A stretch of 39,747 nt of DNA, from the sequence record NC_048023.1; one strand, given 5' to 3'. How positions within the stretch are numbered: position 1 is the first letter of the stretch; every line of letters begins with the position of its first letter. This stretch comes from Escherichia phage Vec13. A program made the translations under genes and the position numbers. The notes beneath the pieces are model-generated. The model worked only from the letters and a program-made list of their open reading frames with translations, did not search any database and was not told where the DNA came from. Below, in pieces: positions 6,087-39,747 of this stretch.

Positions 6087-6128
6087 TATAGGATTAGACT
6101 CAAGGTCATGACTCAAAGTCGTGGCCTT
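6084..6128 (+). promoter_or_regulatory. RNase III-like hairpin (conserved tagactcaaggtcat ... gtggccttcatgatta)
   Basis: One of three near-identical elements (also 13374..13418, 36491..36538); aaggtca pairs with tggcctt with a G-U. Confidence 0.55.
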
Positions 6129-6169
6129 CATGATTAACCCTAAATAAACACTACTGGAGATTTAACCGT

Positions 6170-13207: not shown

Positions 13208-13372
13208 GTGTTAAAGAAACTTAAAGCTCGATACCACATGTTCATGTACAAATGGTGGAGCGATGAAGCAACCTGCCTGTCGAACATTCTGGGAGACCAG
13301 CGGTTCAACTCTGAGGCATGGAAGAAAGCTAACCGGAAGTTCATGTATCACTTCTTGCGTACAGACTTCTAG
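13208..13372 (+). CDS. Small hypothetical protein (54 aa, GTG start), gene 4.3/4.5 position
   Basis: Strong SD acggagga 7 nt upstream of GTG; below ORF-track cutoff. Confidence 0.35.
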   Translation: MLKKLKARYHMFMYKWWSDEATCLSNILGDQRFNSEAWKKANRKFMYHFLRTDF

Positions 13373-13373
13373 G

Positions 13374-13418
13374 TCTAGACTCAAGGTCATTCATAGCGAG
13401 TGGCCTTTATGATTAGAC
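13374..13418 (+). promoter_or_regulatory. RNase III-like hairpin (conserved element copy 2)
   Basis: tctagactcaaggtcat ... gtggcctttatgattagac; same motif as 6084 and 36491 copies. Confidence 0.55.
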
Positions 13419-13436
13419 TAAAGCGGAGGATTAACC

Positions 13437-16540: not shown

Positions 16541-17399
16541 GAAGAAGATAGCTCTTGTTCTTGATGGCGATTACCTAGTGTTCTCTTCTATGGCTGCTGC
16601 CGAGGACGAGACAGACTGGGGTGATGACATCTGGACCCTTATCTGCGACCACGAGAAGGCTCGTCGTATCCTTGATAACACCATCGATGAAATCGTTAAG
16701 AAGCGCAAGGCGTGGAAAGACGCTAAGATTGTGATGTGCTTTACTGACGATAACAACTGGCGTAAGGATGTTCTGCCTACCTATAAGGCCAACCGTAAAG
16801 GTTCTCGCAAGCCTGTAGGTTACAAGAAGTTCGTAGACGAAGTGATGGCTGACCCACGGTTCAACAGCTTCCTGCGTCCTACGCTTGAAGGTGATGACTG
16901 TATGGGTATCATCGGGACCCGACCTCAGATTGTCGGATGTGACCATGCGGTGCTGGTGTCCTGTGATAAGGACTTCAAGACAATCCCGAACTGTGAGTTC
17001 TTCTGGTTAACCACTGGTGAAATCCTGAGTCATACGACTGCCGAGGCAGACTACTGGCACATGGAGCAGACCATCAAGGGTGACACTACAGATGGCTACG
17101 GTGGTATTCCGGGGATGGGTGAGGACACCACTCGTGCGTTCCTTGACGAGCCATACTACTTCGTGCAGGAGAGCCGTGAGCTTAAGACTGGTAAGAACAA
17201 AGGCCAGATTAAGACTGAGTGGAAGAAGTACCCTAAGCGTGAAGACATGACGCTGTGGGACTGCATGGTGACTCTGGCTGCTAAAGCTGGGATGACCGAG
17301 GAGGAGCTTCTGGTCCAAGCTCAGGTCGCTCGTATTTGCCGAGCCTCCGACTACGACCCTAAGTCCAAGGAGGTCATCCTGTGGACACCATCCATGTAA
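16530..17399 (+). CDS. 5-3 exonuclease (T7 gp6 homolog)
   Basis: 289 aa; FTDDNNWRKDVLPTYKANRK, LEGDDCMGII, SCDKDFKTIPNCEFFW, TIKGDTTDGY, LWDCMVTLAAKAGMTEEEL match T7 gp6. Confidence 0.95.
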   Translation: MGAEKKIALVLDGDYLVFSSMAAAEDETDWGDDIWTLICDHEKARRILDNTIDEIVKKRKAWKDAKIVMCFTDDNNWRKDVLPTYKANRKGSRKPVGYKKFVDEVMADPRFNSFLRPTLEGDDCMGIIGTRPQIVGCDHAVLVSCDKDFKTIPNCEFFWLTTGEILSHTTAEADYWHMEQTIKGDTTDGYGGIPGMGEDTTRAFLDEPYYFVQESRELKTGKNKGQIKTEWKKYPKREDMTLWDCMVTLAAKAGMTEEELLVQAQVARICRASDYDPKSKEVILWTPSM

Positions 17400-23151: not shown

Positions 23152-23154
23152 TTG

Positions 23155-23195
23155 AAACCCCTTGGGTGCCTTCGGGTGCTTGAGGGGTTTTTTGC
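23155..23195 (+). terminator. Tphi-like terminator for phage RNAP
   Basis: aaCCCCTTGGGTGCCttcgGGTGCTTGAGGGGtttttt: GC-rich hairpin with G-U pairs and ttcg loop followed by T6; same position and architecture as T7 Tphi. Confidence 0.8.
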
Positions 23196-24118: not shown

Positions 24119-26476
24119 ATGCCACTAATTACTCAATCAATCAAGAACCTTAAAGGCGGTATTAGCCAGCAGCCAGACATACTGAGGTTCTCAGACCAAG
24201 GCGAGGAGCAAGTTAACTGCTGGTCATCCGAAAGTGATGGACTCCAGAAGCGTCCACCTACAGTCTTCAAGCGACGTCTTGACATCGACGTTGGGAGCAA
24301 CCCTAAGTTCCACCTGATTAACCGTGATGAGCAGGAGCAGTATTACATCGTGTTCAACGGGTCCAACATTCAGGTAGTCGACTTGAGCGGTAATCAATAC
24401 TCAGTTTCAGGTGCGGTAGACTACGTTAAGTCGTCCAACCCGCGAGATGACATCCGTGTCGTTACAGTTGCAGACTATACGTTCATCGTGAACCGTAAGG
24501 TTGTCGTTAACGGTGGAAGCGAGAAGTCACACTCTGGTTATAATCGTAAAGCTCGTGCTTTAATTAACCTGCGTGGTGGACAGTATGGTCGCACCCTTAA
24601 GGTAGGAATCAACGGAGGCGTTAAGGTTTCGCATAAGCTGCCAGCAGGTAATGATGCCGAGAATGACCCACCTAAGGTGGATGCTCAGGCCATCGGTGCA
24701 TCTCTGAGAGACCTTCTTGTTGCTGCTTACCCTACCTTCACGTTCGACCTTGGGTCTGGCTTCCTGTTAATCACTGCCCCTTCAGGGACTGACATTAACT
24801 CAGTGGAGACGGAGGATGGCTACGCTAACCAGCTAATCAGCCCAGTCCTAGACACGGTGCAAACAATCTCTAAGTTGCCTCTTGCGGCTCCAAATGGGTA
24901 CATCATTAAGATTCAAGGTGAGACCAACAGTAGCGCCGATGAATATTACGTGATGTATGACTCCAATACTAAGACGTGGAAGGAGACAGTAGAGCCGGGA
25001 GTGGTCACTGGGTTCGATAACACCACAATGCCACATGCTCTGGTGAGACAATCTGACGGCTCCTTTGAGTTCAAGACTCTGGACTGGTCTAAGCGGGGTG
25101 CTGGTAATGATGACACAAACCCTATGCCTAGCTTCGTGGATGCTACGATTAACGATGTGTTCTTCTACAGGAACAGGCTAGGGTTCTTGTCAGGAGAGAA
25201 CGTAATCATGAGCCGTTCAGCCAGCTACTTTGCGTTCTTCCCTAAGAGTGTGGCGACATTGAGTGATGATGACCCTATTGACGTAGCTGTAAGTCACCCT
25301 AGAATCTCAATACTTAAGTATGCCGTTCCGTTTAGCGAGCAGCTACTACTTTGGTCAGATGAGGTGCAGTTCGTGATGACAAGCTCAGGGGTCCTTACCT
25401 CGAAGTCTATCCAGCTTGATGTGGGCTCAGAGTTTGCCTTAGGTGATAACGCCAGACCGTTCGCTGTAGGACGCTCAGTCTTCTTCTCAGCGCCTCGTGG
25501 GTCATTCACCAGTATTAAGCGATACTTCGCTGTAGCAGATGTGTCTGACGTGAAGGATGCCGATGATACCACTGGTCACGTACTGTCCTATATCCCTAAC
25601 GGGGTGTTTGACATTCAAGGTACAGGGACTGAGAACTACATCTGCGTCAACTCTACAGGTGCATACAACCGAATCTACATCTACAAGTTCTTGTTTAAGG
25701 ACGGCGTACAACTTCAAGCCTCTTGGTCGCACTGGGAGTTCCCTAAAGCTGATAAGATTCTGGCGTCTGCGTCGATTGGCTCTACCATGTTCATTGTTCG
25801 TCAGCACCAAGGGGGTGTGGACATTGAGCACCTTAAGTTCATCAAGGAGGCAACCGACTTTCCATTAGAGCCGTATAGACTCCACGTTGACTCCAAGGTG
25901 TCTATGGTAATCCCAAGTGGCTCATATAACGCTGACACCTATGAGACTACGGTCGACATTGGTTCTGCTTATGGTGGAAACGCTCCGTCTCCCGGTCGGT
26001 ACTATCTGATTGACAGTCAGGGTGCCTATGTGGACCTTGGTGAACTGACCGACATCTCAACTGTGGCTATACTCAATGGCGATTGGTCGGGACGTACAGT
26101 GTTCATCGGACGGTCTTATCTGATGTCCTACAAGTTCTCACGGTTCCTGATTAAGATTGAAGACGATAGTGGCACTCAGTCTGAAGACACTGGACGTCTA
26201 CAGCTTCGTAGGGCTTGGGTCAACTACAAGGACACTGGCGCTCTTAGACTCATTGTCAGAAACGGTGAGCGGGAGTTCGTGAACACCTTTAATGGGTACA
26301 CCATTGGTCAGCAAACCATCGGGACTACCAACATTGGGGATGGACAGTATCGCTTCGCTATGAATGGTAACGCATTAACCACGAGCCTAACCTTAGAGTC
26401 AGACTATCCTACCCCAGTGTCCATCGTTGGGTGTGGCTGGGAGGCGTCATACGCTAAGAAAGCTCGTTCCGTCTAA
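24119..26476 (+). CDS. Tail tubular protein B (T7 gp12 homolog)
   Basis: 785 aa; QSIKNLKGGISQQPDILR, VTVADYTFIVNR, NDVFFYRNRLGFLSGEN, LQLRRAWVNY, GCGWE match T7 gp12. Confidence 0.98.
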   Translation: MPLITQSIKNLKGGISQQPDILRFSDQGEEQVNCWSSESDGLQKRPPTVFKRRLDIDVGSNPKFHLINRDEQEQYYIVFNGSNIQVVDLSGNQYSVSGAVDYVKSSNPRDDIRVVTVADYTFIVNRKVVVNGGSEKSHSGYNRKARALINLRGGQYGRTLKVGINGGVKVSHKLPAGNDAENDPPKVDAQAIGASLRDLLVAAYPTFTFDLGSGFLLITAPSGTDINSVETEDGYANQLISPVLDTVQTISKLPLAAPNGYIIKIQGETNSSADEYYVMYDSNTKTWKETVEPGVVTGFDNTTMPHALVRQSDGSFEFKTLDWSKRGAGNDDTNPMPSFVDATINDVFFYRNRLGFLSGENVIMSRSASYFAFFPKSVATLSDDDPIDVAVSHPRISILKYAVPFSEQLLLWSDEVQFVMTSSGVLTSKSIQLDVGSEFALGDNARPFAVGRSVFFSAPRGSFTSIKRYFAVADVSDVKDADDTTGHVLSYIPNGVFDIQGTGTENYICVNSTGAYNRIYIYKFLFKDGVQLQASWSHWEFPKADKILASASIGSTMFIVRQHQGGVDIEHLKFIKEATDFPLEPYRLHVDSKVSMVIPSGSYNADTYETTVDIGSAYGGNAPSPGRYYLIDSQGAYVDLGELTDISTVAILNGDWSGRTVFIGRSYLMSYKFSRFLIKIEDDSGTQSEDTGRLQLRRAWVNYKDTGALRLIVRNGEREFVNTFNGYTIGQQTIGTTNIGDGQYRFAMNGNALTTSLTLESDYPTPVSIVGCGWEASYAKKARSV

Positions 26477-26500
26477 CTTATTGAAGGGCCTATAGATTTA

Positions 26501-26523
26501 CCTTAACTATCACTATAGGGACT
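26501..26523 (+). promoter_or_regulatory. Phage RNAP promoter (phi13-like), flanked by 12-bp inverted repeat
   Basis: ccttaACTATCACTATAGGGact; aagggcctatag (26484..26495) and ctataggccctt (26522..26533) are perfect reverse complements. Confidence 0.85.
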
Positions 26524-26552
26524 ATAGGCCCTTAAGGTTATAAGGAGACTTT

Positions 26553-27023
26553 ATGTATATTCGCAAGGCTACGGAACCAGATGTCCACTGCTTTCTGTGG
26601 CATCTTTCAGCAGATGATGTTAATGAGTGCAAAGCAAACTATGGGTCAACCGTTGGTCTCTCTGAGAGACTGCTTAAGCATCTATCTCCTTCATCTGTGG
26701 TTTTAACGAACTGTGTAGGCGAAGTGTTTGCCTATGGTGGAAACCAAGGGGATAACGTATGGTTCTTGACTTCAAGTCTTGTCGAAAGGTTAAGTCCGAA
26801 AGACAAGCGGGAGTTCATTCAGCGCATCTCTGAGTACAGGGACTTAATGTTAGACCAATACGGGACCATCTGGAACTACGTGTGGTCAGGCAATAAGTCT
26901 CACATTAGATTCTTGCGGTTACTGGGAGCTAAGTTCCACCATGATGTGACTATCAGTCCAGTAACAGGTGAGCGTTTTCAATTATTCACAATCTCTAAGG
27001 AGGACGTATGTGCGAACCCGTAA
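26553..27023 (+). CDS. Internal virion protein gp13-like (assignment by synteny)
   Basis: 156 aa ORF between tail tubular B and gp14; SD taaggag. Confidence 0.6.
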   Translation: MYIRKATEPDVHCFLWHLSADDVNECKANYGSTVGLSERLLKHLSPSSVVLTNCVGEVFAYGGNQGDNVWFLTSSLVERLSPKDKREFIQRISEYRDLMLDQYGTIWNYVWSGNKSHIRFLRLLGAKFHHDVTISPVTGERFQLFTISKEDVCANP

Positions 27024-36230: not shown

Positions 36231-36490
36231 CGCAGATGGACTTAGAGAAGTTCCTCTTGATGCTAGATACTGAACGTGCTCGACTCATGCTGCAAGACCT
36301 GCGGGATGACACTAAGCGTTCACCTCAGCTTTACAACGCCATTGAGAAGCTACTGGCTCGTCACAACTTCGTGCTAAGCAAGGTGTCTGTCGACGAGAAG
36401 ACTCTGGCTGATATGGAGGCCCTGAACGCAGAGTACGATAAGGTGCTCTCGGCTACGGAAGATAATGACACCGGGTATGGTGTTCAATAA
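36227..36490 (+). CDS. Terminase small subunit (T7 gp18 homolog)
   Basis: 87 aa ORF immediately upstream of Rz-like and TerL in T7 order; SD aaaggagg. Confidence 0.8.
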   Translation: MTQMDLEKFLLMLDTERARLMLQDLRDDTKRSPQLYNAIEKLLARHNFVLSKVSVDEKTLADMEALNAEYDKVLSATEDNDTGYGVQ

Positions 36491-36538
36491 GTGTTAGACT
36501 CAAGGTCATTACTATATGTAGTGGCCTTTATGGTTAAC
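36491..36538 (+). promoter_or_regulatory. RNase III-like hairpin (conserved element copy 3, R18.5-like)
   Basis: gtgttagactcaaggtcat ... gtggcctttatggttaacac; outer arms gtgtta/taacac complementary. Confidence 0.55.
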
Positions 36539-36591
36539 ACTAACTAGTGGAGGAGACTCTACGTGAAATCTGATAAACCGGGAGGGCAACT

Positions 36592-38801: not shown

Positions 38802-38895
38802 CTGAATGAATAACTATGGGTGAAAGCTGCATGAATACGCAGTTAGTAACCTATAGTTACTACCAGTCTAACCTACTGTTTTACAAGGAGTTTGG

Positions 38896-38918
38896 ACTTA
38901 ACTATCACTATAGGGAAG
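38896..38918 (+). promoter_or_regulatory. Phage RNAP promoter (phiOR-like, near right end)
   Basis: cttaACTATCACTATAGGGAagac; +1 G at 38913. Confidence 0.85.
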
Positions 38919-39568: not shown

Positions 39569-39747
39569 TCTCACAGTTCAAGAACCTCAAGTCTCCCCAT
39601 AGGCCCTCTTTAAGTCCAGACCAAAGGCCCTACCCCAGTCTATCATAAGGTTAGACCGATGGTCAAGACTTCAGGTCAACGATAGGTGGTGACTATGGCT
39701 TAGGGAAGGACGATAGGTGGTGACTATAGGTCTGTCTTTGAGTCTCT
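39569..39747. repeat. Right direct terminal repeat (DTR), identical to 1..179
   Basis: Exact 179-nt repeat of the window start. Confidence 0.9.

Follow-up and report, generated by a model that had tools for sequence, protein, structure and literature searches.

A predicted RNA hairpin around promoter phi13 of Escherichia phage Vec13, a probable Kayfunavirus counterpart of the RNase III site R13

The gene 12/13 junction and its inverted repeat

The window analyzed here, meaning the whole stretch of 39,747 bp deposited for Escherichia phage Vec13 (NC_048023.1), is a complete linear genome, since it carries an exact 179-bp direct terminal repeat (1-179 and 39569-39747) of the same length as reported for K1F. 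In the gene 12-13 region, identity is 99.3% to Escherichia phage PhiNW-B1 and approximately 93% to K1F, and the genome belongs to Kayfunavirus (K1F-like) of the subfamily Studiervirinae. Genes 12 and 13 are separated by a spacer of 76 nt (26477-26552), within which lie an inverted repeat and a promoter of the phi13 type (Table 1).

Table 1. Features of the Vec13 gene 12/13 junction, with positions counted in the 39,747-bp window
Feature	Position	Strand	Basis or remark
Gene 12, tail tubular protein B, 785 aa	24119..26476	+	ORF list; relatives annotated tail tubular protein B/gene 12
Gene 12 stop codon TAA	26474-26476	+	7 nt upstream of the 5' arm
Candidate lower stem, 5' strand UAACU, including the gene 12 stop	26474..26478	+	Centroid folds; pairs with GGUUA 26536-26540
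5' arm AAGGGCCUAUAG	26484..26495	+	-34..-23 relative to the phi13 start, outside the promoter
26-nt loop with promoter positions -17..+4	26496..26521	+	Sequence and fold
phi13-type phage RNA polymerase promoter CCTTAACTATCACTATAGGGACT (-17..+6), +1 at 26518	26501..26523	+	Alignment with 8 other consensus promoters
3' arm CUAUAGGCCCUU	26522..26533	+	+5..+16 of phi13 transcripts
Stem foot and 3' flank GGCCCTTAAGGTTA	26527..26540	+	Resembles the canonical RNase III 3' foot GGCCTTYATGRTTA
Candidate lower stem, 3' strand GGUUA	26536..26540	+	Centroid folds; pairing in relatives
Gene 13 Shine-Dalgarno sequence AAGGAG	26542..26547	+	Sequence; phage Peacock annotates a ribosome binding site there
Gene 13, internal virion protein A, 156 aa	26553..27023	+	ORF list; relatives annotated internal virion protein/gene 13

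The initial annotation of this DNA described a perfect 12-bp inverted repeat flanking a phi13-like promoter, and both inspection of the sequence and a repeat finder confirmed this description. The two arms, AAGGGCCTATAG (26484-26495) and CTATAGGCCCTT (26522-26533), are 100% complementary and lie 26 nt apart, and the repeat is not extendable at either end, G26483/A26534 and A26496/A26521 being unpaired. Between the arms we found CCTTAACTATCACTATA directly followed by GGGACT, with +1 at 26518, in agreement with the promoter consensus (A/C)CT(A/T)AACTATCACTATAGG of the genome, which was obtained by aligning all CACTATAGG sites and comprises nine sites. The equivalent 23-bp site of Citrobacter phage CR44b is annotated as a 'predicted promoter'.

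Both arms contain the promoter-like core CTATAG, as had also been pointed out, and the 3' arm resembles a second, partial copy of the promoter core (GACTATAGG compared to CACTATAGG). Since the 3' arm of the Kayfunaviruses is this second CTATAGG copy at +5..+16, the whole promoter comes to lie in the loop; were the 5' arm to pair with the promoter core instead, the helix would have 7 bp only. Two additional promoters were considered at the arms and rejected: on the minus strand of the 5' arm CTATAGG alone matches and the upstream 17 nt are off consensus, and at the copy in the 3' arm the -17..-8 region is off consensus.

No other perfect inverted repeat of at least 12 bp with a loop of at most 60 nt was found in the 39,747-bp genome. 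Dinucleotide-shuffled genomes contained 0.107 such repeats on average, and 9% of the shuffles had at least one, hence the repeat alone is only modestly improbable by chance and its meaning must come from the context. Among the nine promoters of the genome, phi13 is the only one bracketed by a stem longer than 8 bp, and this unique bracketing, together with the stem probability, the z-score of the fold and the conservation of the core in relatives presented below, argues against a chance occurrence. A search of Rfam gave no matching family anywhere in the genome.

Constraints acting on the DNA could nevertheless have produced the repeat as a by-product, if the 3' arm is kept as the initial transcript or 5' UTR of phi13 following the duplication of CTATAGG, and the 5' arm for an unrelated reason or by hitch-hiking in a recombination-prone and highly conserved spacer, leaving the hairpin without a role. 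The presence of a perfect 12-bp repeat in 9% of the shuffled genomes is consistent with such an origin, as is the sequence of the core, since CTATAG is itself a palindrome and copies of it pair automatically. On the other hand, none of the other promoters is bracketed likewise, and the 5' arm, at -34..-23, lies beyond the 23 bp that annotations give to promoters of this kind.

The second-longest perfect inverted repeat of the genome lies beyond the last promoter, close to the right end, and consists of 11 bp with a 19-nt loop (39365-39375/39395-39405, CTAAGGTCAGT...ACTGACCTTAG).

Folding of read-through and promoter-started RNA

According to the initial annotation, transcripts reading through from upstream would fold into a hairpin with the promoter in its loop, while those started at phi13 would carry the downstream arm only. 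The folding predictions agreed on both accounts. RNA of 26470-26560 forms the 12-bp stem with a minimum free energy (MFE) of -27.8 kcal/mol (z = -3.6), and RNA beginning at 26518 has the 3' arm only and is without significant structure (z = +1.0). The pairing probability of the stem was approximately 1.0 in contexts of 220 and 331 nt, the stem being retained in both the MFE and the centroid structure of the latter, and it was also approximately 1 in the variant sequences of 27 relatives. Inside the loop, a small inner helix may form between CCUUA (26501-26505) and UAGGG (26516-26520). The lower stem UAACU/GGUUA is weak, comprising only 5 bp, and two alternative registers compete for it.

An extended lower stem in the read-through RNA could act as a translational switch, in which the ribosome binding site of gene 13 is hidden until initiation at phi13 or cleavage frees it. 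Pairing of GUCU (26471-26474) with AGAC (26546-26549) and of CUUAU (26477-26481) with AUAAG (26540-26544) does appear in the MFE fold of both the 91-nt and the 331-nt RNA, and the mean unpaired probability of the Vec13 ribosome binding site was 0.27 in read-through RNA compared to 0.51 in phi13-started RNA. However, the centroid folds take a different lower stem, the accessibility difference was as expected in five of nine relatives and opposite in the remaining four, and conservation of the pairing partners breaks down in subtypes whose gene 12 C-terminus differs or whose UTR carries an inserted segment. A switch of this kind is thus a very improbable explanation of the repeat.

A stable hairpin directly 3' of a gene may also suggest that transcription by the phage or the host RNA polymerase is attenuated or terminated behind gene 12. 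In contrast to this expectation, the stem is followed by AAGGUUAUAAGG instead of a U-tract, the loop comprises 26 nt, and the real terminator of the genome, at approximately 23154-23193, looks different, with a GC-rich stem followed by UUUUUU. Since there is no U-tract and a terminator scan gave no match at the repeat, we rejected attenuation or termination as close to implausible. Of the processing, stability or attenuation functions initially proposed for the repeat, attenuation consequently falls away, whereas processing or stability is supported by homology to R13 of phages T3 and phiYeO3-12 and to R6.5 of T3, as discussed below.

Among 80-nt local folds, the most stable in the genome is a different one, a long hairpin at 136-215 (UAGGUGGUGACU...AGUCACUACCUA, -38.9 kcal/mol), which starts in the terminal repeat and extends approximately 36 nt beyond it, and which may be related to concatemer processing or packaging.

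Conservation in Kayfunaviruses and covariation in other lineages

The initial annotation had suggested looking for the repeat in close relatives. Using gp13 and the C-terminus of gp12 as probes, we gathered spacers from IMG/VR, metagenomes and GenBank, in total a sample of approximately 40 sequences, of which 25 were distinct and of the Kayfunavirus type; roughly 220 Kayfunavirus records matched in GenBank. The core of the repeat was present in all 25 distinct Kayfunavirus spacers having this promoter arrangement, so that an absence from close relatives, named in the initial annotation as grounds for refutation, was not observed. It was near-invariant (GGCCTATAG...CTATAGGCC) even where the promoter specificity region differs (e.g., ...TATTACACCCTCACTATAGGGAC), the 3' arm was unchanged in 24 of the 25 distinct relatives, and the loop measured 26 nt across 28 variant sequences (25 nt in one). 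The outer three positions of the 5' arm vary (AAG, AAT, ATT, ATG, AAA) while the 3' arm stays CCCTT, and the AAGG foot is lost in 16 of the 25 relatives. Since only nine of 25 sequences have G-C as the third pair counted from the outside, and the changes of the 5' arm at this position are uncompensated, the repeat in its full 12 bp is confined to the K1F subclade. Judged from the alignment, the conserved unit is the 8-9 bp core together with the candidate 5-bp lower stem, UAACU/(G/A)GUUA. Across the Kayfunaviruses 93.4% of the cells of the 12-bp stem are paired, and 97.6% of those of the candidate lower stem pair in the 25 relatives.

The whole spacer, with the TAACTNATTGA that directly follows the stop codon, is better conserved among Kayfunaviruses than gp13 (60-92% amino-acid identity), and in some relatives the promoter specificity region has been swapped with the flanks unchanged. 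One disrupted spacer, that of Enterobacter phage 04_vB_Eclo_IJM, was left out, since the fragmentation of its gene 12 region into small ORFs suggests poor assembly. The same spacer of enterobacterial phages is carried almost without change by two Kayfunavirus genomes deposited as 'Staphylococcus phage MBBL139' (OR786095) and 'Enterococcus phage EFA-1' (MT350292), and the host assignments of these records look doubtful.

Compensatory changes in the stem numbered zero among the 25 distinct Kayfunavirus spacers due to the invariance of the arms, and the two compatible changes that were observed are both one-sided, namely A26492 to G in the upper stem of one natural variant, giving a G-U wobble, and an alternation of U-A and U-G in the lower stem. 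Invariance of the arms alone does not prove a structure, since the whole spacer is highly conserved. These observations, i.e., the lack of compensatory changes, the conservation extending beyond the arms and the uncompensated drift of the outer positions of the 5' arm, are what a by-product of DNA constraints would leave behind. In the absence of covariation inside Kayfunavirus, structural support must therefore come from other lineages.

We aligned 16 spacers from T7, T3-like, K11-like, Pseudomonas-phage-like and other Studiervirinae with MAFFT and examined a 14-bp helix. In these phages, a segment just 3' of the gene 12 stop can pair with the core of the lineage's own promoter and the bases transcribed first, as exemplified by the arm pairs GUCUCCCUG(C/U)GGUG with CUCACUAAAGGGAGAC, AAUCCUUAUGGUGUGC with GCACACUAUAGGGAG, and GUGUCUCUCUGUGGUGC with GGCAUUAUAGGGAGACAC. 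The helix had 83.9% of its cells paired, compared to 40-57% in slid controls, and compensatory changes were found in six of the 14 pairs. Its covariation score was 0.222 vs. 0.095-0.135 for the slid controls, a value reached by none of 500 shuffles. Moreover, G-U pairs are frequent in this helix, thus favoring a structure of the sense-strand RNA over one of the DNA (cruciform). The hairpin around phi13 of T7, UUCUCCCUGUGGUG/CACUAUAGGGAGAA, folds with z = -4.2, and one contig with a K1F-like gp12 shows the T7-type arrangement. On comparative sequence grounds, the covariation of the other lineages is decisive evidence for a promoter-bracketing hairpin at the gene 12/13 junction. That every other lineage bearing phi13 has such a hairpin here, built from different sequences and with compensatory changes, speaks against the repeat being a by-product of DNA constraints, an explanation that we find quite improbable.

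Between phi13 and the start codon of gene 13, beside the ribosome binding site, T3-like phages carry a G homopolymer whose length varies from 4 to approximately 14 residues (in T3 at 996-1011 of the segment examined); it may be due to sequencing errors or be prone to slippage.

Relation to RNase III sites and proposed processing

Hairpins at the corresponding junction are annotated in two phages of the T7 group. In T3 (AJ318471), the stem-loop 25443-25480 is annotated as 'RNase III recognition site R13' with phi13 (25457-25479) nested in it, and in phiYeO3-12 (AJ251805), the stem-loop 26209-26246 is a 'putative RNase III site R13' with promoter phi13 nested at 26223-26245. The GenBank records of T7, as retrieved here, show phi13 and no R13 feature. 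In T7, R13 is reported to lie at coordinate 27281 (Dunn and Studier, 1983). R13 is counted among the ten RNase cleavage sites of T7, and RNase sites paired with promoters have been described as common in this phage (PMC6938266).

The Vec13 element resembles R13 of T7, T3 and phiYeO3-12 in being located between the gene 12 stop and gene 13, in having the transcription start site inside the hairpin, and in having the 5' arm upstream of the promoter, such that the hairpin is possible only in read-through RNA. It differs in the make-up of the 3' arm. In R13 of the three phages, the 3' arm is the promoter core itself (approximately -7..+7) and the loop contains the upstream part of the promoter only, whereas in Vec13 a separate CTATAGG segment at +5..+16 serves as 3' arm and the promoter from -17 to +4 lies in the 26-nt loop. 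The similarity between the arm sequences of Vec13 and of R13 is limited to CUAUAG.

A closer structural likeness is found in R6.5 of T3 (AJ318471, stem-loop 17135-17206), in which phi6.5 (17160-17182) lies entirely in a 25-nt loop. Its upper stem AAGGCUCUCU/AGGGAGCCUU is followed by UAUGAUUA, and in Vec13 AAGGGCCUAUAG, the 26-nt loop and CUAUAGGCCCUU are followed by AAGGUUA. Both elements have an upper stem of 10-12 bp starting with AAGG and ending with CCUU, a loop of 25-26 nt holding the entire promoter, a 3' arm that begins a few nucleotides downstream of +1, with an internal loop and a lower stem below. T3 R6.5, however, is found at the gene 6.3/6.5 junction, its lower stem comprises 9 bp and its flanks are fully canonical (ACUC...UAUGAUUA), compared to a lower stem of 5 bp and an only approximate 3' flank in Vec13.

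A covariance model constructed from eight annotated canonical RNase III sites of T3 was run on the genome and recognized seven sites on the + strand, at 851-909, 1206-1258, 1523-1575, 2223-2275, 6089-6142, 13370-13420 and 36489-36542 (E from 1e-9 to 3e-5), whose positions suggest equivalents of R0.3, R0.5, R1, R1.1, R4.7 and R18.5. No match was obtained at 26.4-26.6 kb even at E <= 10, and the Vec13 element is hence outside the canonical sequence class as represented by the T3 sites. With canonical hairpins of the R0.3, R0.5, R1.1, R4.7 and R18.5 type (ACUCAAGGUC...GGCCUUUAUGAUUA) it shares the two-tier organization and the AAGG/CCUU foot, while its large loop, 5' flank and short lower stem are different. 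The R0.3-like site at 851-909 also has AGGGCC/GGCCCU in its upper stem. In Vec13, AAGGGCC...GGCCCUU is followed by AAGGUUA, and in the canonical sites an upper stem of approximately 10 bp with AAGG...CCUU is followed by (U/C)AUG(A/G)UUA. The GGCCTTYATGRTTA-type foot motif is common to the annotated T3 sites, and GGCCCTTAAGGTTA differs from it by two mismatches in the same register, being the only match with at most two mismatches beyond three canonical sites (0.56 expected per genome).

From these comparisons, we consider it probable that Kayfunaviruses have, in the RNA hairpin encoded by this repeat, their own equivalent of the T7-group RNase III site 'R13'. R13 itself has long been known in T7 and T3, and the Kayfunavirus element is most likely a member of the R13 class built like R6.5 of T3.

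The hairpin could alternatively act independently of RNase III, either as a barrier to 3'-5' exonucleases that fixes and stabilizes the 3' end of the gene 12 message once this has been cut elsewhere, or as an insulator between the gene 12 and gene 13 messages. A stem that is stable and conserved would suit such a role, the covariance model of canonical sites found no match here, and the 8-9 bp core of most relatives is shorter than the minimum of 11 bp between cleavage site and loop reported for efficient cutting by Escherichia coli RNase III (PMC1540722, Pertzev and Nicholson, 2006). The 12-bp helix of Vec13 satisfies this minimum, and many relatives have only 8-9 contiguous bp. However, the outer A-U pairs and the lower stem would add up to a quasi-continuous helix of more than 11 bp, the foot of the stem resembles canonical sites, and T3 and phiYeO3-12 have homologous hairpins at this junction whose annotation is that of RNase III sites. 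A role independent of RNase III is therefore unlikely in our view, and cleavage by this enzyme is the reading that we follow below.

No consensus phage promoter is present between the terminator (~23154-23193) and phi13, so genes 11 and 12 are presumably transcribed from upstream, through the terminator. RNAs of genes 11-12 started upstream would then cross the gene 12/13 spacer and contain both arms, folding into a two-tier hairpin with a short lower stem, an internal loop, the 12-bp upper stem and the 26-nt loop. Host RNase III would make a single cut on the 3' side, close to the foot of the upper stem (approximately 26533-26537), leaving the gene 11-12 message with the hairpin as a protective 3' end and releasing a gene 13 message whose 5' end would be within approximately 20 nt of the phi13 start. 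RNA started at phi13 (26518), with its 3' arm only and no hairpin, would escape processing. In RNase III substrates, internal loops confine the cut to one of the strands, and a protective hairpin remains at the 3' end (PMC1540722). The A-U, A-U, G-C foot of the Vec13 stem would fit the pb3/pb2/pb1 preferences given in the same paper if the cut falls one position below the stem, a mapping that we infer. Likewise, we infer cleavage by RNase III, the position of the cut and the stabilizing effect, while the repeat, its location, predicted fold and conservation and its match to the annotated R13 and R6.5 stem-loops come directly from the analysis.

It is further conceivable, but unlikely, that R13 was rebuilt in the Kayfunaviruses, the 3' arm having moved from the promoter core to the duplicated CTATAGG and thereby given rise to a T3-R6.5-like site with the promoter in the loop. 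If this were true, bracketing of phi13 with a processing hairpin would itself be under strong selection, and the likely benefit would be gene 13 messages with equal 5' ends, whether from read-through or started at the promoter, along with capped gene 12 messages. In Vec13, the structure could in addition gate the translation of gene 13, via the alternative lower stem over the ribosome binding site.

The junction hairpin is absent from the annotations of eight GenBank records inspected over the gene 12-13 region, namely K1F (two records), Peacock, CR44b, Ro103C3lw, MopsHU1, 04_vB_Eclo_IJM and MBBL139, in which coding genes, ribosome binding sites (Peacock) and one predicted promoter (CR44b) are annotated at this place. 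In the searchable literature we found neither this element nor a paper pairing Kayfunavirus with RNase III. The finding is of use for annotation and engineering, as phages of the K1F type serve as therapeutic and engineering chassis: a construct with cargo placed between genes 12 and 13, or one reusing the promoter and its flanking sequence, would either include or disrupt a probable processing site, one that separates the message of the tail genes from that of the internal virion proteins. Throughout the subfamily, this junction retains a hairpin that brackets the promoter though the sequences differ, and the finding opens no new question.

Elsewhere in the genome, CCTATAGT (38850-38857) is the exact complement of the core of the last promoter, ACTATAGG (38907-38914, +1 at 38913), and lies 49 nt upstream of it; this pairing could be a weak echo of the T7-type R13 arrangement and is possibly due to chance.
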